The notes: generated from the sequence alone by a model not told the origin. Shown: positions 38,908 to 58,127, numbered from the stretch's first letter. The stretch: DNA of 64,000 nucleotides from Botryllus schlosseri (GCA_051294905.1 CM119372.1:29824001-29888000), one strand, 5' to 3'. A program made the numbers and translations.

Positions 38908-41625
38908 AAGATTTTTACATTGATATGGCCATTCTGTTGATGGGCATTAGCGGTTTGAAGCGAAACTGCTTCGTGATTTCCGTAATTAAAAAATTGGTTC
39001 TTAGTTATTTTCCAAATTTAGAGGTTTCACGTACCCCCAGAAAATGCTTCGCGGACCCAGAGGGGTGTAACCTGCAAGAGCAACCAATATTAAAATGATT
39101 GTGCGTTTTACATAGCCACCATTGCTCTGTCACAAGTAAATTGACCACAAACGAAGTGATCGGAGCTTACAGCTTACGTCTTCGTAAACTAGTATAGTAT
39201 ACTCAATACTTCTCATTTTGCTCTGCTCTCGCCCTAACCAAACATCATCTTTGATTTAAATAGAATTCGAATATAGTTTATATAGTCATCAACCATTGGC
39301 GCCAGGCATGAACTGCTGTATAACATGGTTGTGTAGGCATCAGATCAATTCGATTCTACTTTGAGGCTTCATCTGATATTCTCTATTTGGGTAATAATTG
39401 TGTAGCGATACTATACAGTATGTAGTTTAGGTAGTTTATGTCTACGTATGTGTGAGCGATACAGCGCCTTTTAGCAAGTATGCTTTTAACTATATATTCG
39501 TTCCTCGATTCAAAATGAATGACCACTCAATCTATATTTAAAACAGCCATCTAAATGCTATGACTTAGCGTTATCATGCCTCGTATTCTGAAAATGCAAT
39601 TTAATTTGAATTGTGATTGTCTCGTGACTTGACTCGAGTCACCTCCGAAAATCGAGTGACTTGACTTGACTCTACTCGAGTCAAAATGTACAATGACCCG
39701 AGATGACTTGTGACGCGAAGGTAGTGACTTGATCCCAACACTGGTTGGAGCCAGAATCGGAGTCGGTGCGTTTAACGAATCGGGAGTCGGAGTTGGAGTC
39801 GGTGTAAGTAGTGAGGGTACCTGAAATTGGCGCCGTCCAATCAAATTTCGCCACGCCGCCTTAATTGGCATGTCTACAGGACGCCCATTGCCACGTCACC
39901 TGCCGCACCTATAACACACCCATTGTCACATCATCATGTTAGAAGATTAAATTCCAATTTCGCGCAATCAATTTATGTGTATTTAAGACTATATATGATA
40001 CATAAGACCTCTGTAAATATTGAGAAATGGCATCATCACTAATTAATCAATGTTCATTTATTTCGAAAAAATAGCATACTATATCAGTAATAGCGTTAAC
40101 GTCACAAACGCATCCAGCACGACCAGACGGCGTGAAACAGCGCTTTCGCTCGATTCTTGTAGTCACCACATTTCATACGATTCAGTCCTTTTTATGTCAC
40201 TAGAATAAGGGTAATTAAACCGACAGTGAAACGCTGGCGGCGTCTTATAACGTAATAATGTAAGCTGCGTCGGGTGCTTCTCTAATGTTAGGAGCGAATA
40301 TAGTAGAAAGTCCACGTCTGGACACCTGTAAGCAGGTGTGCATACTACCGTTAAAACGCATAACAGAATTCACGCAAAATCGGTACTGCTCTGCGATAAT
40401 TTTGATCACTATGTTTTGATAATAACTTGCTTTAATGTTGTTCCATACCGATTGGGAAGATAGCACACCTAATTTCGTAACTAACTACATAATCCCTAGT
40501 AACGTAGTCAGACGCATAACGGAATTTACGCAAATTGGCATTGCTCTGCGATAATTTTGATCACTATGTTTGGATAATGACTTGCTTCCGAGAAATAAAT
40601 AACATTCATTATACGTTAGATGATACTTTTCCTGTATATTCTATTATGTGTATTTAGGGCTAATGCGTCATCACTATGTTGGCGACAGGCCTGGTTTGAA
40701 CACACTAATTTTGCAAATTAAACTTATCACCCACCACCGACACTCAATGAAGAGCACCCTGGAGCACCCACATAAATGCTCTACAATGCTTGACATATAA
40801 TATACTGAGCATATAATAAGCTGACAAAACTGATACTTGAGTACTCCGAAATGTACAAGTACTTTACCTTTACACGACGTTTTTGTAAAATGAATACTAA
40901 TGGTACGCGAATGAGAATGATCATATACTAAGCTCAGAGTTGGAAACTAAATGCATATGAAAATTTAACTACGTTTTCCCCACACGCATCAAATGCAGGC
41001 CTCCTCAAGTGTTTATGAGGCGGCTAATAGTTCGAAGGTTGTTGGTATGCAAGGACGTCACATAGAATTGTGGAGTTTTCTGTAAACTATAATCCAGTGA
41101 TATATTTTCAATCACTATACTTTAAGTAGGCAAACCCCAGGCAAGTTTCCTCTGATAAAAGCTGGAGTAATTCGTTATCCGTGAAATAAATAGATAACGC
41201 GCTATATGAGCGGTGTTACGATGACTGACAAATACTAATAATATAATATTAATTAATGTATAGAAGTAGCGATTTCGAACTACGTAAAAAGTTAGTATAG
41301 CTCACGCATTTTCCATTTTCAAAAGTCAAATTACTTATACAAAATACAAATACAAAATTACAAAATACTTATTTTATTAAAAATTGAAAAATTAAAAAAG
41401 AGCGAAAAATTACATTTTATCCCTGAACGCAACAAGAAAAATCGTATGAATTTAAACTATTTATGCATGACATAATAATAATTCTACTTGCACACTTTTT
41501 CACATTTTATAACACTTTTAGTAGTACTTAACAATTTCAGTTTTAAATAAAATTCGGAATATAAACTATAATCAAAAATTTCGGTAACCAATTTCGCGTA
41601 GGCTATGCATACAAACGAGGGAAGT

Positions 41626-42903
41626 GAAATACTTGTTCGCTTGAGCTAACCCGCAGCGCCTGGAGTGAAATTTTATAGTTCTTGTAAAAAGTTGTTTGTA
41701 CTTAATATATGTTTAAGGTATGTCCTACACATTCATGATTTCGTCCGAGTTTGTATTTTAGTAGTATATACTAATTTACGATACCGCATTTGTAATTTGT
41801 GCAAGAGTTGTATGCGCACAATATATGTTTATCATAAGTCCTACACATTCATGATTTCGTCCTAGTTTGAGTTTTAGAAAATATTATACCGACATCGCGA
41901 CATCTTTCAAAAACAAAACCGTGGTCAATGCTTAAGAGACCATTTTCGCTATTTTCCATCGCCATTCTGGACCGCGAAAACACATTGTACGATATAGATG
42001 AAACTTTGGAAGATAGCACACTCAATTTTGTAATGTATCTAGATAACTACTTTTATGAAACTCTTACATTTCTACTAAACTAATACACTGAATCTTGTGA
42101 GTTACGCATTTCATCATTGAACAACTTTAAAACTAACGCAGTTCTATGCCGACATTTGCGTGAATCTCTTTTGCGGGAGCGTAGCACATACCTATGCGTA
42201 GTCAACTTACTGGTGTAATTAGTTTCAACACTTTTACAACGATTTTTCTTGCTTCCTATAACATCCCACTCGAAGCCCTAGTTATTAGGCTATGATCTCG
42301 GCCTGAGCTATGTCTTGACTCCTACGGGACTCTGCAAATTGTTTCGATATATTCTGCCCGTTTTAATTTAAGATAAGGAAGCCCATTTCACTCAATGTAT
42401 CGATGCCTACGGTACTCTACAAAATTTTCTGATTAATTCTCCCTATGTTAATTTACCATAAGAAAGACAATTTGACTCCTAAAGTCCGAAATACTTGCTC
42501 GCTTGAGCTAAGCCGCAGCGCCTGGAGTGGAATTTTATAGTTCTTGTAAAAAGTTGTTTGTACACAATATATGTTTAAGGTAAGTCCCACACATTCATTA
42601 TTTCGTCCGAGTTTGTATTTTAGTTGTATATACTAATTTACGATACCGCATTTGGAATTTGTGCAAGTACAGGAATATCATAGTTTTGGTAACAAAGTTG
42701 TATGCGCAAAATATATGTTTATCATAAGTCCTACACATACATGATTTCGTCCTAGTTTGAGTTTTAGAAAATATTATACCGACATCGCGACATCTTTCGA
42801 AAACAAAACCGTGATCAATGCTTAAGAGACCATTTTTGCTATTTTTCATCGCCATAAGTCATTCTGGACCGCGAAAACGCATTGTACGATATAGATGAAA
42901 CTT
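41626..42903 (+). repeat. Direct duplication (~41626-42006 and ~42488-42903) upstream of Bcl-2 copy A
   Basis: GAAATACTTG...GATATAGATGAAACTT occurs twice in the left arm and once in the right arm. Confidence 0.85.
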
Positions 42904-42980
42904 ATGCAAATCCTAGGATCCTCATTTTCAAAGTAGCTTAGATTTCGAAACAAGCTCTGACTCGCTATTCTCCTCAAAGC

Positions 42981-45314
42981 ATGGAATTACCACGAGCATC
43001 ACCTTCGTTCACTGAAGAAAAGGATGAAATTATATCCAAAGTATATTCCTTGACCAGGAATTTTATCATGTACGAACTCGAAGGCTCATGCGTTAAGGTA
43101 AATACGAAAGCAGAGAGAACCTTACGTCGAGTTGGGGATGAAATGTTCGAGCGACATCGAACTGTCCTAAACGCAGTCTCCAAACGTCTCCGCTATAGTG
43201 ATATCGAAGTCAATGAAAAATACAAAGAATATTTACCCTATGAGCGAATGTTCCTGATGATAGCTGATGAAATTTGCAAAGATACCAAAGAAAATTGGGG
43301 TAGGATTGTCTCCCTTTTTGTGGTCGGTAGCAGAGTTGGATCAATTGTAATTTGTAATTGTAATTGAATGTAATTAATTACATTTTTCAATGTAATTGTA
43401 ATGTAATTGTAATTGAAGCATTTTTATTTTGTTCAATTGTAATTGTAATTATAATTTGACAAAAATTTGGCTCAATTACAATTTCAATTACATTAAATTG
43501 CTATTGAGACCTGACAAGCACAACATAAAATATTTGACTTATAATGCATTCTCTTTAAATGTCGACAAGGAATTTGGTGGATCCATTCGCGGAAGCCCTT
43601 GACTGCGCCCTTGCGGGCGAAGTTTTTTTTATTTTTACCGCTATGCTGGCCTCGGCTGCCATTGTATACAATTTTTAGATTATTAACCAACGGATGGATT
43701 CGCAACACGTGACTCACGATTGAATACGCCGAGAAGCGAACTGCTGAGCCGGCTAAAAGCAGAAGAATTGATAGTCCCATAGCTGGCGATCCAAGCGTCG
43801 AAATTTGATTTGTATGGTCCTAATCGGAAGCTAGTGTCGCACTGATTCCGCAATAAAAGTATATTTTCAGGCAATGGTACCACCCAAAATAGTCGTGAAA
43901 GTCTGGGAATCGGCATTGTTCTGAACAATCGCCGGGCGTAATTGGTAATTGTTTTGGTCATGCTGCTGCAGCGCTCTCACTTTTCAGAACAGTCGGCCTT
44001 AAACGGCTATTTTGGAGCAGTTACATTGCCCTGACGAGAATTTATTTTGTATTTTCGGAATTGGTACATCAATAGCTTACGATAAAGACCAGATGCATCA
44101 AATTTGGACGCATGGATCGCCAGCTCTAGGACTACAAAGTTTGCTGCTTTTAGCCTGCTCTGCAGTACGTTTGTCGGTGCATTCATCCGTGACTCACATC
44201 TTGTGCATCTATCCGTCGGTTGGCAATCTACAATACGATTTCAGATCACGATGCTGCATCGTTACTTCGTCTGGCTAACTAACCAGACCACTGGATATTA
44301 TATAACGTCTTATCTGACAAAGCATGGTTTTGTTTTCACTCCTCATCCTAATTCCTACGTCCCTCGATAAAAATAATATTATTTCTTTAATTATATACTA
44401 TATACGCAAATCCAACCCATGCATATATTATAATATTTTTTCAACGACATACTGCACCCTATCCTTAATCATAACCCATAGGAAATTAGGTAAATAACAT
44501 TTTACAATTACGTGAGCCATAATTACCGAGCATACAAAACACGCTTATATTACGTCACAATGACATCTTACAGAGCATACTAAGTACGCACATGAACACA
44601 TTTATTACTACACAATCTGAACTAGACTTGGATTGTTGTTAAATACGACGCTACGGTTGTCAAGGAGCACGGTTGAATTTATGATTATTCAATTACATGT
44701 TCAACAGCAGCAATTGTAATTGTAATTGTAATGTAATTGAAGCATGCAAGGAGTCATTGTAATTGTAATTGTAATTTGATATTTTTAGCATTGAGTAATT
44801 GTAATTGTAATGTAATTGAAACATGCATGAAAGTAATTGTAATTGTAATTGTAATTGAACTGAAATAATGTAATTGATCCAACTCTGGTCGGTAGCATTC
44901 TTGCTCGCAAGAACGTGGATGAACATCACGGGGAGCATATAGAAGCTATCATACAGACAGTCGGAAATTACATTGCTAGCAGAAGACTAAAGTGGATAGT
45001 GCAAAATGGAGGATGGGTAGGTGATTTACATGCTTTGCTTAGTATTTATGAATTATCTTTTAGCATGAGATATATAGTGTATCTGCTCTCCAGAGCCCGT
45101 ATCATCTCTCGATGATGAAACTCAGCTTTATCTTCCAATTCGATTCACGACACGATAACTTTCCTCCCTATTATCATTAAGGCTTCTATTTTTGTTGCAG
45201 GATGGCTTTGTAGGATTCTTTGATAATACCGCTTTCGACTACAATAAAGTTTGGAAGGGACTCGTGTTTTTCGGAATCGGACTGACATCTATAGCAATGA
45301 CATTATCAAGATAA
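42981..45314 (+). pseudogene. Bcl-2 family (Mcl-1-like) gene, copy A; 194-aa frame intact apart from a transposon insertion at the end of BH1
   Basis: Exon 1 is 42981-43330 plus 44896-45016, intron 45017-45200, exon 2 is 45201-45314. BH3 LRRVGDE, BH1 NWGRIVSLF, BH2 WIVQNGGW|DGF with the family-typical intron, hydrophobic C-terminal anchor, AATAAA at 45354. Confidence 0.9.
43331..44887. mobile_element. hAT-type MITE (CAGAGTTGGA, GTAATT arrays) inside the Bcl-2 exon
   Basis: TIR CAGAGTTGGATCAATT...AATTGATCCAACTCTG, perfect TSD GTCGGTAG. Empty site present in copy B. Confidence 0.95.
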
Positions 45315-45637
45315 TGGATGTTCGCATGTTTTTATCTCATGTAATATTTTAAGAATAAAATTCTTCATCGTTTAATCGCATCCATTTTACTGTAGGATGT
45401 ATAGAGTTTCTTCTGAGAATACTCGAAGGGTTGCCCCATATGGAAACCTTCTTTATACTTTTAATTTTTTAAATTTTTACAGCTACGTAAGGGAATTGTT
45501 AGGGTTACCCAGAATACGCTGCAGGTCAAATTTGATTTGATTACGAGCATTATAGCGACAGAGATTTACGATAGTGTAAAATAACCTACCTTACGACATT
45601 AAATTTCGTCTTCTCTCCAAGTGGAAATATCATGTTC

Positions 45638-45734
45638 TATAAGCATAAAAACATTCCCGCGCGCTCCTAAACCTAAACTTTTCGTAACCCTACCACCTAA
45701 TACTAAGACGCGCGGGAATGTTTTTATGCTTATA
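45638..45734. mobile_element. ~97-bp miniature inverted-repeat element
   Basis: TATAAGCATAAAAACATTCCCGCGCG...CGCGCGGGAATGTTTTTATGCTTATA. Confidence 0.75.
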
Positions 45735-46160
45735 CAACTCAGCGAATACCCATCGGCCTGCTCACTACATTTGAAAGATTCTCTCCACTATTGTGTATAA
45801 AAGAATATACTTCTCTTAGTAAGCAATTTCTCGTGAATTCCGAAGCACGTTGACGTGTGTTAACTTCTGTATTAGGTGATAATATCATTTTAATGTCTGA
45901 TAATGTTACTTGTCTAGTGATACAAACGTAAGCTCATATACTACTTTAAAATTTAATGTCTCACCAAATTTTATCCAAAACTGAAACTTTTAAGTACCGA
46001 TAAAGTACTCTAAAACCTAGTCACTTTTTACGTGGAGGGAGTACATAGCGGAGTACTTGTACAATGTGGAGTACTCAAGTATAGGTTTGGCCTGCTTGAG
46101 CTATACTTATAGAATCATTCCTGTGTCATAAACACTTGAGTAGTTGGTGCGTGTGGACAT

Positions 46161-47730
46161 CAGAGTTGGATCAATTACATTATTTCAGTTCAATTACAAT
46201 TACAATTACAATTACTTTCATGAATGTTTCAATTACATTACAATTACAATTACTCCATGCTAAAAATATTAAATTACAATTACAATTACAATCACTCCTT
46301 GCATGCTTCAATTACATTACAATTACAATTACATTACAATTACAATTACAATTGCTGCTGTTGAACATGTAATTGAATAATCATAAATTCAACCATGCTC
46401 CTTGACAACCGTAGCGTCGTATTTAACAACAATTCAAGTCTAGTTCAGATTGTGTAGTAATAAATGCGTTTATGTGCGTACATAGTATGCTATGTAAGAT
46501 GTCATTGTGACGTAATATGAGCGTGTTTTGTATGCTCGGTAATTATGGCTCACGTAATTGGCAATGTAAAATGTTATTTACCTAATTTCCTATGGGTTAG
46601 GATTAAGGATAGGGTGCAGTATGTCGTTGAAAAAGTATTATAATATATGTACGTGATGGATTTGCGTATATAGTATATAATTAAAGAAATAATATTATTT
46701 TTATCGAGGGACGTAGGAATTAGGATGAGGAGTAAAAACAAAACCGTGCTTTGTCAGATAAGACGTTATATAATATCCAGTGGTCTGGTTAGTTAGCCAG
46801 ACGAAATAACGATGCAGCATCGTGATCTGAAATCGTATTGTAGATTGCCAACCCACGGATAGATGCGCAAGATGTGAGTCACGGATGAATGCACCGACAA
46901 ACGTACTGCAGAGCCGGCTAAAAGCAGCAAACTTTGTAGTCCTAGAGCTGGCGATCCATGCGTCCAAATTTGATGCATCTGGTCTTTATCGTAAGCTATT
47001 GATGTACTAATTCCGAAAATACAAAATAAAATCTCGTCAGGGCAATGTAACTGCTCCAAAATAGCCGTTTAAGGCCGACTGTTCTGAAAAGTGAGAACGC
47101 TGCAGCAGCATGACCACAACAATTACCAATTACGCCCAGCGATTGTTCAGAACAATGCCGATTCCCAGACTTTCACGACTATTTTGGGATGGTACCATTG
47201 CCTGGAAATATACTTTTATTGCGGAATCAGTGCGACACTAGCTTTCGATTAGGACCATACATATCAAATTTCGACGCTTGGATCGCCAGCTATGGGAATA
47301 TCAATTCTGCTGCATGTAGCCGGCTCAGCAGTTCGCTTCTCGGCGTATTCAATCGTGAGTCACGTGTTGCGAATCCATCCGTTGGTTAGTAATCTAAAAA
47401 TTGTATACAATGGCAGCCGAGGCCAGCATAGCTGTAAAAAAAAACTTCGCCCGCAAGGGCGCAGTCAAGGGCTTCCGCGAATGGATCCACCAAATTCCTT
47501 GTCGACATTTAAAGAGAATGCATTATAAGTCAATTATTTTATGTTGTGCTTGTCAGGTCTCAATAGCAATTTAATGTAATTGAAATTGTAATTGAGCCAA
47601 ATTTTTGTCAAATTATAATTACAATTACGCAAAATAAAAATGCTTCAATTACAATTACATTACAATTATATTGAAAAATGTAATTAATTACATTCAATTA
47701 CAATTACAAATTACAATTGATCCAACTCTG
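46161..47730. mobile_element. Second, inverted copy of the CAGAGTTGGA MITE
   Basis: Same TIRs, own TSD GTGGACAT, near-identical reverse complement of 43331-44887. Confidence 0.95.
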
Positions 47731-48211
47731 GTGGACATATAACTACTTGAGTACTTTGAAGAAGTCCATATACTTCTCTGCTCAACATCTCTGAACGGTA
47801 GAAGTGGAGATATAGTCTACAAACATATTCAGTCAGTTACTTACTCTGTAATCGCTATTGCATAAGTAAAAAGTTGGTATTCAGGGGTCTATTTTTTGTT
47901 TAATACTGAAACAGTCTTGAAGTAGAAACAATCCTATATCACAAACATTCGAATATTTTCTGTATGTAGGAAAAACCTACTTGAGTACTCAGTACTACTC
48001 TACTCATCATCTCTGAACGCTAGAGGTGGAGATAGTCTACAAACATTTACTTACTCACTTTGAAATCGCTACTTGTACTTATATTCGAGAAGAATTGCTC
48101 GACGTTGAATACCATCCGATAGCGTTTATGATTCTACTTTTACTTCATAGAATATATAGTTATAAAAGTAAATAGTTTTATGATAATCTACATCTTCAAG
48201 CTGAAAAGAGG

Positions 48212-50477
48212 ATGTACCATCAATTAGTACTTACGGATCATGATGAAGTGAAAATTTATTATGGGCTCTATCACCAAACTATGACTGAATTGGACATAAA
48301 TAATATCGCGAATTCTCTTATTCGGCAATCTCGCGTGTATGAGTTAGAATTTCGTCAATGCCATCTCAATGAAAACCTCGTCAAGATTCTATTTGATACA
48401 ATTCGTGGATTTGAATTTGAGGTAAACGCCTTCACACATTCCGCTCGTAGCCATTGATCATTATAAATTCACGTTCAATTTAAGTATATGTTATCCGTAA
48501 AATATTGAGATACAGCTTTATCGTTATCGCATTGTTCTGTATTACTAATGTGTTAAGGCGCGAATTGGTGGTATCGCAGAGAACAATGCTTATTTGCTAC
48601 TGGTATAGGCATTAGTCTCGATAGCCTTACTAGATAGACTATAGTCAGAGTTGATCAGTGTTAAGATGTTCATAGATCATTTAGCGTTTTATGCGTTAAG
48701 TTTTGCGCTCGTTCAGGTCGAAATGAGAAAACTCAGCGTTACAGCACACAACGACATTGCGAAACTCATCCCATTAATCTGTGAGCTGATGAAGGAGTGT
48801 GCTTCGACGGAGCTCAATCTGCAAGAAAGTGGTGGATCCGAGGATTTTCTGATTATTTTGAGTAAACTTATACAGCACCATCAGGTATTGGTGATGGAAA
48901 AAGCTAGGCGCTAATCTAGTATAGAACCTATCGAAGTGATATTTCCTAATACCTCATTTCCGTAGGCGAAATTGAAAAACCTCGATCTCAGCTACGCAGA
49001 GAACATTAACTTTACGCAACTCGGGACTATTATTTCGAGTGATCTAACATATTTGTCAGTTGTGAACTCGCGCTTGCAGTCAAAAGATTTCATTGCTATG
49101 CAGCTCGAAAACTTTAAGGTCTGCGCGATTATTGCTGGGTACGGTTTTTATTGATCAAAGTCTGTATGAGCAGCTGTGTAGAGATGGATGAGGGAAATTC
49201 TAGTTTCATCTTAGCACATTTAGCCTATATTATGACGTGAGTGACTAGACAACATATTTTCTGTTATAAGTTTGAATTTTTTTATGTCTGATCATTGCTG
49301 ATCGTAAATTTACAGTTTCCGAAATTTTTTAGCTCCAATATCTTGACATCAGTTACAATCAGCTGGATGAAGAGTGTATGATCGCGCTGCCTGCCTTACT
49401 TTGTAAAGACAAAGGGGTTACTCTTATCATGAAAGGATGTGACCTTACACCCGAGAAAATTCACGCTTTTGAAAGTTTTGGTGATATCGGGGTACTGAAT
49501 CGTTTCTATAGTTTTGTGGATCATTTTGAAGTAAATTGGTGGATTTATAGGTTGAAAGCCTTGATATGAGTTACAATACCGATATGGAACCGGGAGGCTT
49601 GAAAGAAGTTGGATGCTTCGTAAGAAAGCATTACACGAAAACAGTTCGACTTTCAGCTTGCGAATTGGATGAAGACTCACTAATCTCGTTAAATAATGGT
49701 CTCGGAATTTATGAGTTGATCATTTGAAATATATCTGTTTTGTTTTCTAACTGAAATAATCAATCACAGTGTAATGCTTATGTGAGTTTTGGTAATATTC
49801 AAGCATGACATTTCATTGATCGATAGAATTGTCATCATCAATAAAGTGCTTCTGATCACGAGCTTCATTATCTTCTTCGGTGTTGCATAAGTTTTGCTAT
49901 TAGGAGTAGAAATCGCAAAAATTTGCTCAACCTTCGGTAAATAATATAATATAAATCTATTACAGCCTTCGAGCCGTTTGTAGTCTCGTAAACTATCTGA
50001 ACATCACACCATGTTTTAGCTGCATTCGCTGGATTTAAGTAGAAATCCTGGCATTTCATCCTGCTACAAAACAGTAACTAAAGTCCTGTGCAATTCAAGT
50101 GTGGAAGAATTTAATCTGTGTAATTGCAAGATGCTTTCCCTGCAAATCAGGAATCTGAGCGAAGAGATGGGAAAGTAAGTACAGTAAGATCTTTCTGCTC
50201 AATCATATATCCCGATTTAGCGATGTAGTTCGTTTCTGTATTTCTAAATTGATATAAATCTCCTATTATTCAATTAACAGCTAAAAGCAATCGACCTCAG
50301 TGATAGCGATAGAACGAGAATCGATGAGAAATACGTGAATTCCATTCAGAGAGCTTCGTGACATATAATCCTGAATGTCGCAAAGTCAAACTAGTCTTAC
50401 CGCGCTTGAGTGGGGAAGATATGAAGACCTTGAGAAAACAACTGTACTCACCCTGTACGGGGATATTTTCCGAATAA
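48212..50477 (+). pseudogene. NLR/RNI-type leucine-rich-repeat-only gene, 7 exons, 3' part degenerate
   Basis: Exons 48212-48421, 48717-48884, 48966-49118, 49333-49491, 49551-~49715, 50020-~50174, 50281-50477. Later exons open with LxxLDLSxN motifs (LKNLDLSY, LQYLDISYN, VESLDMSYN, LHSLDLSRN, LKAIDLSD). First four introns are clean phase-0 GT-AG. After that the phase-0 donor is lost at 49716, there is a phase conflict at ~50175 and a frameshift at ~50350. TATAAAA at 48161. Confidence 0.8.
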
Positions 50478-51053
50478 ACATGTATCTAGATGAGAATTAG
50501 GAGATTTTTCCTTTACTTGATAATGCTTTGCGTGAGCGCTACGGCCTGATAAGATTATAGGTAGGTAGGCCTACATATTAGCAGAAGTTAACACATGTCA
50601 ATGTAACTTTCCGCATTTCTGTCTATATAGATTCGGAATCCACCAGAAATTGGTTACTATGTGAGCGAAGTATTCTTGCAAACCAACAGCACAGGCAAAT
50701 TTAAATTAGTTCGGTATGGACAATATTATAGAACATGATATTTCCACTTGGAGAGAAGACGAAATTTGATGTCGTAAGGTAGGTTATTTTACACTATCGT
50801 AAATCTCTGTCGCTATAATACTCGTAATCGAATCAAATTTGACCTGCAGTGTATTCTGGGTAACCCTAACAATTCCCTTACGTAGCTGTAGAAATTTGAA
50901 AAATTAAAAGTATAAAGAAGGTTTCCATATGGGGCAATCCTTCGAGTATTCTCAGAAGAAACTCTATACATCCTACAGTAAAATGGATGCGATTAAACGA
51001 TGAAGAATTTTATTCTTAAAATATTACATGAGAAAAAAACATGCGAACATCCA

Positions 51054-51808
51054 TTATCTTGATAATGCCATTGCTATAGATGTCAGTCCGATTCCGACAA
51101 ACACGAGTTCCTTCCAAACTTTATTGTAGTCGAAAGCGGTATTATCAAAGAATCCTACAACAAAAATAGAAGCCTTAATGATAATAGGGAGGAAAGTTAT
51201 CGTGTCGGGAATCGAATTGGAAGGTAAAGCTGAGCTTCATCATCGAGAGATGATACGGGCTCTGGAGAGCAGATACACTATATATCTCATGCTAAAAGAT
51301 AATTTATAAATACTAAGCAAAGCATGTAAATCACCTACCCATCCTCCATTTTGCACTATCCACTTTAGTCTTCTGCTAGCAATGTAATTTCCGACTGTAG
51401 TATGATAGCTTCTATATGCTCCCTATGATGTTCATCCTCGTTCTTACGAGCAAGAATGCTACCGACCACAAAAAGGGAGACAATCCTACCCCAATTTTCT
51501 ATGGTATCTTTGCAAATTTCATCAGCTATCATCAGGAACATTCGCTCATCGGGTAAATATTCTTTATATTTTTCATTGATTTCGACATCACTATAGCGGA
51601 GACGTTTGGAGACTGCGTTTAGGACAGTTCGATGTCGCTCGAACATTTCATCCCTAACTCGACGTAAGGTTCTCTCTGCTTTCGTATTTACCTTAACGCA
51701 TGAGCCTTCGAGTTCGTACATGATAAAATTCCTGGTCAAGGAACATGCTTCGGATATAATTTCATCCTTTTCTTCAGTGATCGAAGGTGATACTCGTGGT
51801 AATTCCAT
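51054..51808 (-). pseudogene. Bcl-2 family (Mcl-1-like) gene, copy B
   Basis: Inverted paralog of copy A. BH3 Gly to Arg (LRRVRDE), 1-nt frameshift near 51400 giving a stop before BH2, 13-nt deletion removing the original exon 2 acceptor near 51160. Confidence 0.92.
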
Positions 51809-52981
51809 GCTTTGAGGAGAATAGCGAGTCTGAGCTTGTTTCGAAATCTAAGCTACTTTGAAAATGAGGATCCTAGGATTTGTATAAGTTTCATCTATAT
51901 CGTACAATGCGTTTTCACGGTCCAGAATGACTTATGGCAATGAAAAATAGCAAAAATGATCTCTTAAGCATTGATCACGGTTTTGTTTTCGAAAGATGTC
52001 GCGATGTCGGTATAATATTTTCTAAAACTCAAACTAGGATGAAATCATGAATGTGTAGGACTTATGATAAACATATATTGTGCGCATACAACTCTTGCAC
52101 AAATTGCAAATGCAGTATCGTAAATTAGTATATACTACTAAAATACAAACTCGGACGAAATCATGAATGTGTAGGACCTACCTTGAACATATATTGTGTA
52201 CAAACAACTTTTTACAAGAACTACAAAATTTCAATTCAGGCGCAGCGGGTTAGCTCAAGCGAACAAGTGTTTCACTTTACTCATTTGTATGCATAGCCTA
52301 CGCGAAATTGGATACCGAAATTTTTGATTAGTATATATTCCGAATTTTATTTAAAACTGAAATTGTTAAGTACTACTAAAAGTGTTATAAAATGTGAAAG
52401 AGTGTACAAGTAGAATTATTATTATGTCATGCATAAGTAGTTTAAATTCATACGATTTTTCTTGTTGCGTTCCGGGATAAAATGTAATTTTTCGCTCTTT
52501 TTTAATTTTTTAATTTTTAATAAAATAAGTATTCATTTTACAAAAAACGTCGTAATTTGACTTTTGAAAATGGAAAATGCGTGAGCTCTACTAACTTTTT
52601 AGGTAGTTCGAAATCGCTACTTCTATACATTAATTCAAAGTATTTGTCAGTCATCGTAACCCAGCTCATATTGCGCGCTATCTATTTATTTCACGGATAA
52701 CGAATTACTCCAGCTTTTATCAGAAGATACTTTCCTAGGGTTTGCCTACTAACAGTACTTGGTTTAGATTAATAAAAGTATAGTGTTTGAAAATAGATCA
52801 CTGGATTATAGCTTACAGAAAACTCCACAGTTCTATGTGCCGTCCTTGCATACCAACAACCTTCGAACTATTCGCCGCCTTATAAACACTTGAGGAGGCC
52901 TACATTTGATGCGTGTGGGGAAAACGTAGTTAAATTTTCATATGCATTTAGTTTCCAACTCTGAAAGCAAGCTTAGTCAAT

Positions 52982-53728
52982 TATTATTATTATTATAGGT
53001 AAAAACATTGGCATGAGTGGCGCTTATCACAACTGAAGGCTTTTTGCGCCACGGACAGAAACAAGTTAAACAGAAAGTTCATAATATATAACTGAGATAG
53101 TTAGGCCTACACATATGCACATAAAAAGGTTTTACAATATTCCTCGAGTCGATCTAACATATTCAACAACATATCGCAGTGCTTGTGGATCAGTCAGTAG
53201 GGTTCGCATGTCGAAATTTACATTCTTAGACTCTGCATGACGTCGTAAGCGTTCTCTTTGATAGCGGTATTTTCTACAATTCATGAGATAATGCTCTACG
53301 GTTTCCTCAATACCACATGCTTCGCACCGCAGTTGCGAGTCGATGCATCCAATCTTGTTGAGATGGTGGTTTAGTCTGCAATGCGTCGTTCTTAACCGCA
53401 GCAAAATCGAATTTCCCAACCTTGTATCCACTTCCGATAGTCCGTCATGTACCGAGGGTCGCAGATCTTTGTACGCTCTCCCAGTATCTGTGGATTGATA
53501 AATGCGGTCCCACTCATCTTTGCAGCTCTTTAGCAAGCACGACCGTACGTCGGCGAGTGGGATAGCATGATTCCGACGTATGTGTGTATTAGCAGCTCCC
53601 GTCCTAGCTAATTGATCTGCAGATTCATTACCGCGTATTCCGGAGTGTCCAGGCACCCATACAAACGATATGGTGATTTCTGCTGTTCGCAACTGATGGT
53701 TCAGCTCAATAATTTCATTCACCAGTGC
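52982..53728 (-). mobile_element. 5'-truncated non-LTR retrotransposon (I/Nimb-like): RNase H C-terminus plus CCHC finger
   Basis: ORF 53132-53722: WVPGHSGIRGNESADQLA...LRLRTTHCRLN...CEACGIEETVEHYLMNC. (TAA)n tail, 12-bp TSD AGCTTAGTCAAT. Confidence 0.93.
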
Positions 53729-53789
53729 AGCTTAGTCAATGATCATTCGCGTACCATTAGTATTCATTTTACAAAAACGTCGTGTAAAG

Positions 53790-55589
53790 CAGTGGTTCTC
53801 AACCATTTTCACCTCGCGGACCGGTAAAATTTCAAAAAATATTCGGCGCACCGGTGGACTTTCAGAAATTGAAATCAACCCAAAATGTAGAGTATGTAGC
53901 CGTTTTTTGCGAGTTTATGGTGCTAGAGAGTGACATTTTTAGGGTTTTAATCGTAATTAATTATGTTCGTGATGGTATCCATGAGATTTTAAGGTGGTGA
54001 GTCTGCTGAGTCGAGGTAAAATTGCCTTTTCCAGATAAACGTGCTACCGCTGCGAGTCGTTTACAGTCTTTCGCGCCGTATGCCGTGGATTTAACCGACC
54101 ACGCCAACTCGAATAATTTTCTTCTCTTCGACAATATCGAGAGAAGAAGTGTTTTGGAGTCGAACCAAACACCTTGTCGTGCTACCTTACTGAATGGTCA
54201 TTGCTCAATACCACCAAGCGTAGGCTACTACGGATACAATGCGCCGCACGGAACACCTGACAACAGCTATACCTGGCCAATGGCCATACACAAAACCAGT
54301 GCCGAAAAGGTACGTCGTCAGTCAACCCCCCGAAAAACGTTCGTCTTGGGCCCCCACAGTTATATGGATGCTTTCGTCACTACTTGTGAGCACATCCATT
54401 CTACTTAGTGTAGGCAGAGAGTTTACGTTGCCTAATTGAGCGAAGCGTGGGAATTTTCTATAATTCATGACTGAATCCGTCAATAATACTGCGTACATAT
54501 TGCTATAATTTTTTGTATCATCCTCTCAGAATTGTTATCAGCAGATTCTCCGGTAGAGCTGAGGGAGGCGTCGTCTTGGAAAATTTATGGCATGTAATCA
54601 AATTAAACTTATTCGGGCTGGACTGTTGCAATAATTACTTCGTTGCATGTCATTTATTCATGACCTACTGTCTGTTATATGGCGAATAGATATTGAAATA
54701 GCTCAAGCGTAGGCTATCTTAGTAGCTATCTTAGTACTAAGATAAAAGAAGCACACGAATAAAAATTGCTATTTCTGCACTGGAAAATAACTTTTCTCTG
54801 TAGGATGGCGTTTTGCTGTGGGGTACAGTTTGCCACGACAGCAAATTTCGGCTCCAGCCATTTAGGTGCCTATGGACAATCTGACATATGTATATCGAGG
54901 TTTTCGGTCTGCCAAGGGTAGCTGTTTTCGGCCGAGGTTTTCTCGCTGCCAAATCTTTGGCACACTTTTCGCAGTCCCGTGTTAGCTCAAACTTCATCAT
55001 GTGTAGGTGCTTCGTGGCGCGGCAAAGGCTGACGCCGAAAATGCCAGATCTTACAAATCATGCGTATTTCTTGGCGGAAGGGCACCCAATATTCAATATA
55101 TTCAGTGACACAAAATTGGACAAAGAGTGAAAAATTTTGAAAGAGGTTGGATGAAGTTTCAACTAAAATAATCTATAATTTATGTTCATTCACGGAATAA
55201 CTTTGGGCTACCTTCAAGCTCGGTCCCTATCAATTACTGGTTTGTGGTCCGGCAGTTACTAGAGGGCCTAGGCCACTGCACAAAATGAATGAATGGAAAA
55301 CCAATCATCGTGCAAACTGCGCATTTTAGCGAGTCAGCTTGTACTTGTCGCTCGCATGTCGTCAAATGACACGGCTTGGACTTCAAGTCAAATGTTTCCA
55401 GATCTAATATTACCTCACGAAGTTCTCAATCAGTTTATATTTTGATGTTTTATTTATTTTATCAATAGACATGCCTTCAACATAATGTATCTGGAAATTA
55501 AGGTATAAAATTGTAAAATGCCTGACGGACCGGCAGGAAAGTCGTCGCGGACCGGCACCGGTCCGTGGACCGGCGGTTGAGAACCATTG
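53790..55589. mobile_element. hAT (Buster-like) MITE in the right arm
   Basis: TIR CAGTGGTTCTCAACC...GGTTGAGAACCATTG, TSD GTGTAAAG. Empty site near 40870. Related to ~18250-20318. Confidence 0.9.
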
Positions 55590-56532
55590 GTGTAAAGGCA
55601 AAGTACTTGTACATTTCGGAGTACTCAAGTATCAGTTTTGTCAGCTTATTATATGCTCAGTATATTATATGTCAAGAATTGTAGAGCATTTATGTGGGTG
55701 CTCCAGGGTGCTCTTCATTGAGTGTCCGTGGTGGGTGATAAGTTTAATTTGCAAAATTAGTGTGTTCAAACCAGGCCTGTCGCCAACATAGTGATGTCGC
55801 ATTAGCCCTAAATACACATAATAGAATATAAAGGAAAAGTATCATCTAACGTATAATGAATGTTATTTATTTCTCGGAAGCAAGTCATTATCCAAACATA
55901 GTGATCAAAATTATCGCAGAGCAATGCCGATTTGCGTAAATTCCGTTATTCGTCTGACTACGTTACTATAGGGATTATGTAGTCAGTTACGAAATTAGGT
56001 GTGCTATCTTCCCAATCGGTATGGAACAACATTAAAGCAAGTTATTATCTAAACATAGTGATCAAAATTATCGCAGAGCAATACCGATTTTGCGTGAATT
56101 CTGTTATGCGTTTTACTACGGTAGTATGCGCACCTGCTTACAGGTGTCCAGACGTGGACTTTCTACTATATTCGCTCCTAACATTAGAGCAGCACCCGAC
56201 GCAGCTTACATTATTACGTTATAAGACGCCGCCAGCGTTTCACTGTCGGTTTAAGTACCCTTATTCTAGTGACATAAAAAGGACTGAATCGTATGAAATG
56301 TGGTGACTACAAGAATCGAGCGAAAGCGCTGTTTCACGCCGTCTGGTCGTGCTGGATGCGTTTGTGACGTTAACGCTATTACTGATATAGTATGCTATTT
56401 TTTCGAAATATATGAACATTAATTAATTAGTGATGATGCCATTTCTCAATATTTACAGAGGTCTTGTGTATCATATATAGTCTTAAATACACATAAATGG
56501 ATTGCGCGAAATTGGAATTTAATCTTCTAACA

Positions 56533-57647
56533 CAGGGGTGGGCAAACTACGGCGGGCTACCGCGGGCCGCATGGGGCCCTCCACACCGTTCTATGTGGCC
56601 CGCGAGAGTCCAAAGAAACTTATTAAACATATTGAATAAATGCGCAATAAAAATCGCAATAATGCAGCGAATTGATTAAACTTTGTCTTAGCATATTTCA
56701 CCATGATAATTCTAAGACAGTTGTTCTCAAACTGGGGGCGCACCCCCTTGGGGGCTCGAAAGCATCTGAAAAAAGGGGCGAAGCTGAGCTCAACTGAATA
56801 AATTTTCGCGCTCTGCGCGATTTACATACAATTCCTAATTGTTGCACTGTATTTAGACTGAATTTCATATTTAAAAATCTCTCATCCACAGTCGTAACAT
56901 TCCATGCCATCAAACTATCAGTTCGGTTTACTAGCATCCTGGTTGCGTTTTGTTATATGCCGATAAGGGAGCACGGAATCTTTTACCGTAATACCACTGT
57001 TGTAATGAAAATACTTCCTATATTATTTTTACGTTAAATTTCTGGCGCGACAGCCCGATCTCAAGGCCCACGCAGTTCCAAAGGTTGCAACTGCTAAACA
57101 TCACAGAAATCCTGAACGAGATTCACATAATTCAGATTAAGAGAGTGATGATTTCAGATTGGCCAGTCCAGTGATGTGCTTATAAAAAGCGATTCGCGCG
57201 TGTCTTGCTTGGGTAGATTATGGTAGTCATGTTTATCTACACATAGGCTGGTATAGAAGCGTGTTTGAAGCTAACATGGTTATGATGCTGTCAGCATTGT
57301 GTGTCCTCGAACTGAACCAAAAGTGGAATTAGTAAATCTATAAACAGATCGCTGCTCATAGATATAAATTTCAATCCTGGTCTAAGAATTGGTACAACCG
57401 ACTTTCATCTCTATAGTTTTCACAAATAGGTTATTGAGGTCGTCGAGCCTGTGAAATCTCGCCACTGTTTTTGACGCGTGTACGAGATCACCAAAGCAAT
57501 GTTTAGATTGTTTTAAATAAGCATATATATTATCTCCATGTCCTCACTATATAGATCTATATAGAATCCCAATTTAACATAGTGGGGCCCGCGAATGGAT
57601 TCAAATGTTGAATGCGGCCCGCGAGCTCAAAAGTTTGCCCACCCCTG
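56533..57647. mobile_element. hAT (Buster-like) MITE in the right arm
   Basis: TIR CAGGGGTGGGCAAACT, TSD TTCTAACA. Empty site near 39940. Confidence 0.92.
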
Positions 57648-58127
57648 TTCTAACATGATGATGTGACAATGGGTGTGCTATAGGTGCGGCAGGTGACGTG
57701 GCAATGGGTGTCCTGTAGGCATGCCAATTAAGGCGACGTGGCGAAATTTGATTGGACGGCGCCAATTTCAGGTACCCTCACTACTGGTGTATTGAAAATA
57801 TCTGGAGTCGCAGTCGGAGTCGGTGGTAAAACGTACCGACTCAACAGCCTTGTTTACGTCACACGGTTAAGACTATGACAGGCTCTCAGACGTTAGCTAG
57901 CTTCAACTGGGTCCATTGCGATTATAATGAATTGTTTGAGCTTGTTTGCCATCTCGTGGCCTCCGGTGAACATTGTGGCTTCTTAAGAATACTGGAATCG
58001 TGCACGCGTACCGGGCCCAAGTAAAAGTATATTAATTTGGCAGACGCATGAGATTCCAGATTCCAAATTCACGTGGTGCAATATTTTTATTTGTTGGTCG
58101 AATTCGTCATAACATATCAACATAGAG

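Follow-up and report, generated by a model that had tools for sequence, protein, structure and literature searches.

How does a segment that ends like a virus-like DNA transposon come to carry genes of animal type and no viral ones? The question is raised by positions 39807-57785 of a 64-kb window of the Botryllus schlosseri assembly (C2:29,824,001-29,888,000 of 495.5 Mb; "the window" is this whole stretch), where ends of Polinton/Maverick type enclose two Bcl-2-like genes and, between them, a multi-exon leucine-rich repeat (LRR)-like gene. An initial annotation had taken the segment for a non-autonomous satellite, mobilised in trans by a Polinton, that had captured intron-containing host genes able to block cell death. 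We conclude that it is very probably a decayed copy of a family of high-copy, non-autonomous, palindromic Polinton/Maverick (adintovirus-like) derivatives, whose lineage is abundant and young in this genome. In each family member the left end of a Polinton variant, with a Bcl-2-like gene ~3 kb from its terminus, would be present twice in inverted orientation, and one subfamily would add a spliced LRR-like gene beside the centre. The interest lies in the family rather than in the locus within the window.

The element (~18 kb) begins with AGTAGTGAGGG at 39807 and closes with CCCTCACTACT at 57785. Its main features, with the terminal inverted repeats (TIRs) and the arms of the palindrome, are the following.

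39801..39806, no strand: left copy of the target-site duplication, GGTGTA, read directly; same letters and orientation as 57786-57791
39807..39944, plus strand: left TIR, 138 nt, 97% complementary to 57648-57785; opens with (AGT)2 and contains iterated CCCATTGCCAC-type motifs
39807..45642, plus strand: left arm, including one later insertion and ~0.87 kb (roughly 42007-42879) missing from the right arm
42981..45314, plus strand: left Bcl-2-like gene; exon 1 at 42981-43330 and 44888-45016, split by a transposon; intron 45017-45200; exon 2 at 45201-45314
45643..46160, no strand: non-coding centre sequence of the family, with mirror-image matches in five other copies; in the copy on C17 it joins directly to 47731 onward
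48212..50358, plus strand: multi-exon LRR-like gene; exon starts at 48212, 48717, 48966, 49333, 49551, 50020 and 50281, borders read
50726..57785, minus strand: right arm, from the inverted-repeat map, with two later insertions inside
51054..51808, minus strand: right Bcl-2-like gene; exon 1 at 51808-51339, a one-base frame shift near 51399, and 13 nt lost at the border of intron and exon 2 near 51157
57648..57785, minus strand: right TIR, closes with ACTACT; from the inverted-repeat map and direct reading
57786..57791, no strand: right copy of the target-site duplication, GGTGTA, read directly

Direct reading confirmed the termini given by the initial annotation, AGTAGT at the start and ACTACT at the end, together with the exact GGTGTA duplication. 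The element thus has the 6-bp target-site duplication of Polintons/Mavericks and also their 5'-AG...CT-3' TIRs, with a 138-nt terminal repeat at 97%. In all copies read, the TIR holds several iterations of a CCCATTGCCAC(A/G)TCA-type motif (39840-39940 in the window), and many more are present in a copy on C1; a terminal, integration or packaging protein may bind to these motifs. Runs of GGAGTC-type hexamers are found in both flanks, and the flanks are high-copy short repeats, with 1,894 first-look candidates for 39569-39745 and 698 for 57786-57855. The proposed insertion into a GGAGTC-array miniature inverted-repeat transposable element (MITE) is therefore plausible as far as a MITE-like repeat goes, whereas the identity of the two flanks as the ends of one and the same MITE is the unproven part.

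A search with tblastn, using the translations of 17 open reading frames (ORFs) of a polymerase-bearing relative, gave nothing at E <= 0.01 in the 64-kb window. By this search the element has no protein-primed polymerase, rve integrase, ATPase, double-jelly-roll capsid or adenain-like protease gene, which bears out the earlier statement that ORFs of these kinds are lacking. Polintons/Mavericks are defined by the polymerase and the integrase in the accessible text of the sources consulted (PMC6431247, PMC5499653). Since these defining genes are missing, the element can only be a non-autonomous derivative.

The termini connect it to gene-bearing relatives. With 40 of 302 candidates scored, the terminal 150 bp is matched at no fewer than 49 genomic sites, mostly in plus/minus pairs 4-37 kb apart, and the 24-nt terminus has 39 matches at <=3 mismatches compared with 0 for the reversed control. 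Ten terminus-bounded pairs and one polymerase-bearing copy were read in sequence. Perfect 6-bp duplications, all different, flank 7 of the 11 pairs with both ends read: GGTGTA, GACGTG, CGCACG, CAATAT, GATGTA, CAAGGA and ATGGCT. The two checks that the initial annotation had proposed, for copies at other loci with different duplications and for polymerase- or integrase-bearing elements with the same termini, both turned up what was sought, the latter in copies on C1, C9, C6 and C3. The terminus, on whose wider occurrence and link to such elements that annotation had staked its reading, is neither confined to this locus nor unlinked (39 matches, polymerase-bearing copies among those bounded by it). 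At C11:23.46-23.49 Mb the right end reads (AGT)3 and the left end (AGT)2, and the GATGTA duplication is perfect only if the element is taken to include the third unit; slide-back priming would give a variable number of terminal trinucleotides.

Two gene-bearing copies were particularly informative. The copy at C3:4178811-4194366 (15.5 kb, duplication GACGTG) encodes a BIR protein, an unbroken Bcl-2 protein (E 1.4e-20), a Pox_A32 ATPase, an rve integrase with chromodomain, and further long ORFs; the rve domain of the relatives scores E 1.5e-13 and the ATPase lies above the Pfam cut-off. The copy at C1:31.17 Mb (17.6 kb, duplication CAAGGA) has AGTAGT termini, a related terminal repeat and a polymerase-like gene. 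Both copies open with AGTAGTG, and the inner part of the TIR is common to both and to the window element. They are 91-98% identical to each other except in one segment, which is 5.3 kb long and polymerase-like in the C1 copy versus 2.2 kb with Bcl-2 in the C3 copy. Over 4.3 kb at its left end, the Bcl-2-bearing C3 copy runs collinear with the left arm of the window element, and this stretch takes in the Bcl-2 gene at 85-87%. In addition, the window terminus itself bounds polymerase-bearing copies at C9:4.79-4.82 Mb (24 of 24 letters) and C6:0.12 Mb (23 of 24). The ends, the duplications and the termini common to polymerase- and integrase-bearing copies support the proposed derivation from a Polinton/Maverick. 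Ahead of their right end, the gene-bearing copies contain ~4 kb of 500-bp tandem repeats.

The polymerase-like protein of the C1 copy is spread over three ORFs. Among 30 named matches in a protein atlas, 28 are PF03175 clusters (top score 0.94), and the motifs FDFES, NSSRYD, YNEGD, DANALYL, KSGNSAFG and ETDTDS, read by eye, are presumably the exonuclease and polymerase motifs. Residues ~523-572 of one of its ORFs (L049:4594-6903) match the RAP domain below threshold (E 0.0017); this stretch lies between polymerase motifs and could be an inserted nuclease-like domain. A 425-residue capsid-like ORF downstream of the polymerase segment scores 0.98 in the atlas; it matches clusters of eukaryotic hypothetical proteins, 15-30% of whose members have a double jelly-roll, and one further cluster of viral capsids. 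For a protease-like ORF, the sole match in the Protein Data Bank (PDB) is a viral cysteine protease, and it is weak (E 0.57).

The family and its relatives are numerous. The polymerase has at least 58 matches at E <= 1e-50 (of 309 candidates); 17 of these 58 belong to a group at 93-96% and lie in open frames of 1,293-1,303 codons, and ~20 more, at 58-62%, lie in frames of 1,283-1,314 codons. The polymerase-bearing Polinton family looks young. The ATPase has at least 150 matches (150 of 228 candidates scored), which fall into identity groups at 98-100% (39 rows), 84-90%, ~67% and ~49%; these groups indicate several Polinton lineages in the genome. For the Bcl-2 protein there are likewise at least 150 matches (150 of 426 candidates scored), all at E <= 1.3e-84. 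By our reading, about 55 pairs, 110 of the 150 scored rows, have the arrangement seen in the window, a plus-strand copy followed by a minus-strand copy 3-14 kb away. In 72 of the 150 the matched stretch has no stop; in many of the others it continues beyond GGW and takes in intron sequence, in which stops are to be expected.

Upstream of ATPase genes in the 98-100% group, ten copies of Bcl-2 (~400 bp away in the three measured) occupy the position that the polymerase has in the C1 copy, and no polymerase match adjoins a Bcl-2 match among the matches scored. In this lineage Bcl-2 thus stands in place of the polymerase gene, and the polymerase-less Bcl-2 variant has itself multiplied. The initial annotation saw cargo instead of viral genes. 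This is true of the window copy, but Bcl-2 is also found in relatives that encode a capsid and an integrase.

For the LRR-like segment (48130-50480), of whose 299 candidates 40 were scored, there are at least 42 other matches at 92-95%, mostly in minus/plus pairs; an LRR gene unique to the window copy is ruled out by these matches. On C17 and C10 there are copies whose match to the window extends over both the LRR-like gene and Bcl-2, with the order of the two unchanged. The C17 copy (L051), whose arms are 99.97% identical, has a second, 5'-truncated LRR copy that is missing from the window; within the family the window element is thus older and asymmetric. Bcl-2 and the LRR-like gene belong to the standard cargo of a family with hundreds of gene copies, and the one-off chimera implied by the initial annotation did not survive this comparison. 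As the cargo is family-wide, any capture is older than the window copy. In a differently labelled organism, contigs matching 47731-52300 of the window number 23 at >=99%, 85 at 95-99% and 60 at 90-95%, a closeness like that within the first organism; either the palindrome family is common to both, or the two labels cover one species.

The Bcl-2 assignment is well founded. Pieces of the window genes score 38.5, 32.4 and 43.7 bits against the Pfam Bcl-2 domain PF00452 (cut-off 31.4), with both arms above the cut-off, and open family copies reach 74 bits. The left gene, with its ATG at 42981, is 90% identical in amino acids to an open family copy. In alignments the family protein shows LRRVGDE, NWGR and GGW, which we take to be a BH3-like motif, BH1 and BH2 respectively, and it ends in a hydrophobic tail that is encoded by exon 2 (45201-45314, beginning DGFVGFF). 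The GGW codon ends at 45016 and is directly followed by a single GT..AG intron of 184 nt (45017-45200). We take this to be the position of the intron in cellular Bcl-2 family genes, an argument that the gene descends from a cellular one in its genomic form. Exon 2 is kept across three lineages, and the intron cannot be aligned between them. Among 81 RNA-seq reads placed, from ~6% of one run bearing the same species label as the best-matching DNA run, four pass from the GGW codon straight into the exon 2 sequence of paralogues. One pairwise estimate gave a dN/dS of 0.45 at a dS of 0.226. The closest solved structures are BCL2L10 (E 2.4e-10) and then, more weakly, Mcl-1 and A1, all pro-survival members. 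From these resemblances the Bcl-2 protein would likely keep the cell alive during replication of a helper.

In the window, both Bcl-2 genes are broken: the left one is split by a transposon, and the right one is frame-shifted and has lost 13 nt. Other copies differ from the right gene by insertions or deletions exactly at the site of the frame shift and where the intron meets exon 2. An intron was considered for the 1.5-kb gap in the left gene and ruled out, the gap being a hAT-like transposon with its own 8-bp duplication. Of the spliced Bcl-2 gene that the initial annotation saw in each arm, the Pfam-supported gene is present in both arms with its 184-nt intron after GGW, but the gap on the left is an insertion. 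Death-blocking cargo, which that annotation attributed to this copy, is no longer intact here.

The LRR-like gene has seven exons in phase with GT..AG borders and TATAAAAG ~50 bp upstream of the ATG at 48212. By eye, five of its exons open with a motif of the type LxxLxLSxN or LxxLDLSxN. Three RNA-seq reads span the 59-nt intron 49492-49550, as does one contig from a run that we guess to be RNA; one contig from that run also spans the last intron. In the window copy, exon 5 is without an in-phase donor, and the donor region of exon 6 is 12-13 nt shorter than in transcribed paralogues; judged from these differences, the gene is probably defective at both donors. The claimed immune-receptor-like LRR gene between the arms is therefore a spliced gene in the right place, but its LRR call is below threshold and it is probably broken. 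At a guess, the LRR-like protein might act as a decoy or adaptor for innate sensors.

With the later insertions removed, the arms measure about 3.3-4.3 kb, in agreement with the ~3.5 kb proposed earlier, and the whole element without additions ~11 kb. Block identities between the arms are 97.1, 97.8, 89.8, 91.7 and 95.5% in the inverted-repeat map. The palindrome axis of relatives that lack the LRR-like gene maps to ~45686. Two inverted copies of one genome end round a short unique centre, the structure expected of a snap-back genome, are seen in the arm map, in the C17 copy and in other copies. A unit of ~100-200 bp in the window arm (42101-42208) is expanded into long tandem arrays in other palindromic copies. 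Four later insertions were mapped, three of which we class as hAT-like, presuming that 8-bp duplications together with terminal repeats mark that group.

43331..44887, plus strand: hAT-like non-autonomous transposon of 1,557 bp in exon 1 of the left Bcl-2-like gene, with CAGAGTTGGATC terminal repeats and the 8-bp duplication GTCGGTAG; junctions placed against the uninterrupted right arm
46161..47730, minus strand: second, independent insertion of the same 1,557-bp type of hAT-like transposon, inverted, with its own, different 8-bp duplication; missing in the collinear C17 copy
52965..55589, minus strand: composite insertion of 2.6 kb, a 3' fragment of a non-LTR (long terminal repeat) retrotransposon (long interspersed nuclear element, LINE), with an RNase H ORF at 53132-53731 and a (TAA)n tail; ~59 nt of the arm replaced
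56533..57647, minus strand: hAT-like non-autonomous transposon of 1.1 kb with CAGGGGTGGGCAAAC terminal repeats and an 8-bp duplication

The C17 copy is collinear with the window from 52140 to 47731 and then from 46159 to 45709, which identifies 46161-47730 as an insertion. The 1.1-kb hAT-like element also occurs in the copy at C3:17.0 Mb, at a different position.

These data are consistent with a model in which the element depends on a helper. The protein-primed polymerase of a helper Polinton would copy the element, priming on the terminal AGT repeats, and the helper rve integrase would insert it and generate the 6-bp duplication; mobilisation in trans is our inference. Judged by its structure, the palindrome would arise when the replicase switches strand a few kb from the left end and so produces a molecule with two left ends, a snap-back defective genome. 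Both ends would then carry what replication and integration require. Survival of the cell while replication proceeds would be the task of the Bcl-2 protein and, in gene-bearing copies, of the BIR protein too. After insertion into a short repeat the window copy decayed through the three hAT-like elements and the LINE fragment, the loss of one partial LRR copy and the breakage of both Bcl-2 genes. It is now a relic, probably without function. Eight of 15 window-terminus pairs, by our pairing, are 14.7-16.7 kb long, and the two gene-bearing copies measure 15.5 and 17.6 kb; the clustering of lengths is a lead that the satellites may be sized for packaging into helper capsids.

Several observations weigh against this reading. 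Four of the 11 pairs depart from the pattern of perfect duplications: one is without a duplication, one has an imperfect one, and two have mirror-image flanks. In these two, at C2:6.966-6.971 Mb and C3:17.016-17.037 Mb, the 25-60 nt beyond both termini are mutually reverse-complementary, for which nesting in a larger palindrome, a chromosomal fold-back duplication and an assembly fault are possible causes. The polymerase is interrupted by stops in both copies bounded by the window terminus (two in C9, one in C6), and the C1 copy, the only one with a polymerase that was read completely, differs in its outer 30 nt and contains a frame break. The polymerase-like ORFs gave no meaningful Pfam match, and one of them, of 770 residues, had no sequence match in the PDB either; a genome scan with PF03175 was blank and is uninformative, since the 14 genomes of its control likewise gave nothing. 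In Pfam the capsid-like ORF stays below threshold (PF21738, E 0.007), and no family is matched, even at E 10, by the protease-like ORF or by six others in the C1 copy, two of which lie in the block of capsid genes. As to the cargo, the Bcl-2 protein has no match at E <= 0.001 in a collection of 5.8 billion proteins searched among near lengths, single exons of the LRR-like gene reach only sub-threshold Pfam scores (LRR_1, E 0.003, 17.8 bits against a cut-off of 20.6; LRR_6, E 0.021), and the RNA reads come from paralogues (>=90% alike) and allow no assignment to a particular locus.

Three other explanations were weighed against the palindromic family. If the window element were a unique satellite that had itself taken up a host Bcl-2 gene twice and a host LRR gene between Polinton ends, its Polinton-type ends, its lack of viral genes and the introns in both kinds of cargo gene would be accounted for, and its single LRR copy would leave it the asymmetric member that it is. 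We consider this very improbable: Bcl-2 and the LRR-like segment recur elsewhere in the same order and orientation at 92-95% identity, the two Bcl-2 copies are the arms of one inverted duplication rather than separate captures, and the asymmetry is what would result if a partial LRR copy of 2.35 kb, present in C17, had been lost. Equally improbable is a foldback-type or other cut-and-paste family outside the Polintons, whose ends would resemble theirs by chance or through mutual nesting. Long arms with internal tandem repeats and no transposition genes do recall foldback elements, 6-bp duplications are also made by other transposon superfamilies, and the outer 30 nt vary between subfamilies. 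Yet the shared sequence stands at the very ends of the gene-bearing copies, adjoining their own 6-bp duplications, collinearity of the window arm with a gene-bearing copy extends over the left 4.3 kb of the latter and takes in a Bcl-2 gene at 85-87%, and exact 24-nt termini flank polymerase-bearing copies.

The palindromes might also have formed in the chromosome, by fold-back repair or recombination between inverted copies, or be artefacts of assembly, the window then holding a rearranged one-armed fragment. The two loci with mirror-image flanks outside their termini and the 99.97% identity of the C17 arms are what such an origin would produce. It is nevertheless improbable in our view, because a single direct 6-bp duplication brackets the whole window palindrome, as it does four other palindromic copies, and because the window arms differ by 2-10% and carry four independent insertions, which an assembly fold-back would not be expected to give.

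If the satellite reading is right, anti-death genes in the host genome form a virus-driven reservoir on which selection could act. One genome displays a series that runs from a polymerase transposon through a variant with Bcl-2 for the polymerase to small palindromes of ends and cargo, and this makes the birth of satellites of animal double-stranded DNA virus-like elements accessible to comparison. It also indicates that an intron-bearing regulator of cell death can be amplified hundreds-fold, which bears on counts of Bcl-2 and LRR genes in this animal and its marine relatives. The clustering of sizes suggests that packaging limits may shape defective Polintons.

Set beside known systems, the family resembles Polintons/Mavericks in its 6-bp duplication, its 5'-AG...CT-3' TIRs and its relatives, which encode a polymerase, an rve integrase, an A32-type ATPase and a capsid-like protein; it is unlike them in that the window element is nearly all inverted duplication of one end, whereas the TIRs of the polymerase-bearing copy are only ~200 bp long. 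Adenovirus E1B-19K is a viral homologue and mimic of Bcl-2. As there, a virus-like DNA element here has a pro-survival gene of Bcl-2 type that would presumably block death of the host cell, but the gene here is a clear homologue (Pfam E 1e-20) with BH1, BH2, a membrane tail and a cellular intron, rather than a distant mimic; the same comparison applies to other viral homologues of Bcl-2. Nematode cargo Mavericks move host-type genes, although their cargo and their host group are different. Drosophila foldback elements have long inverted arms with internal tandem repeats; unlike the present family, they have no tie to a polymerase- and integrase-bearing virus-like partner.

Adintoviruses, the Polintons of animals, carry homologues of Bcl2 and IAP according to the accessible text of Starrett et al. 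(2021, PMC8502044), and BIR and Bcl-2 genes likewise lie near the left end of gene-bearing copies here. In comparison with that text, the present Bcl-2 gene differs in being seen only in polymerase-less copies. It also differs, as far as the same text extends (PMC8502044), in having been multiplied to hundreds on palindromic derivatives with its cellular-type intron kept. A literature search, conducted without most subscription journals and the Repbase reports, found no palindromic polymerase-less Polintons, no replacement of the polymerase by Bcl-2, and no amplification of Bcl-2 or LRR genes by such elements. The presence of Bcl-2 and IAP in adintoviruses is thus already known, and the palindromic, amplified form is apparently new.

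Defective adenovirus genomes built of inverted left ends were reportedly described by Daniell and Mullenbach in 1978. In the accessible part of the source consulted, snap-back defective genomes arise by symmetric, reverse-complementary copying of one genome end and depend on a helper (PMC13506859). The family shares with snap-back and copy-back genomes a symmetric structure derived from one end and, by a mechanism that we infer, the dependence on a helper. Those genomes are transient in infected cells and have mostly been described from RNA viruses, whereas the copies described here sit in the germ-line genome between target-site duplications and have multiplied as a transposon family. We tentatively suggest that they could be germ-line-fixed snap-back satellites, akin to defective-interfering genomes turned transposons, that derive from a resident Polinton/adintovirus lineage, consist of no more than the ends for replication and integration and an expressed, intron-bearing survival gene of Mcl-1-like type, often with an LRR-only gene, and have been amplified to hundreds of copies.

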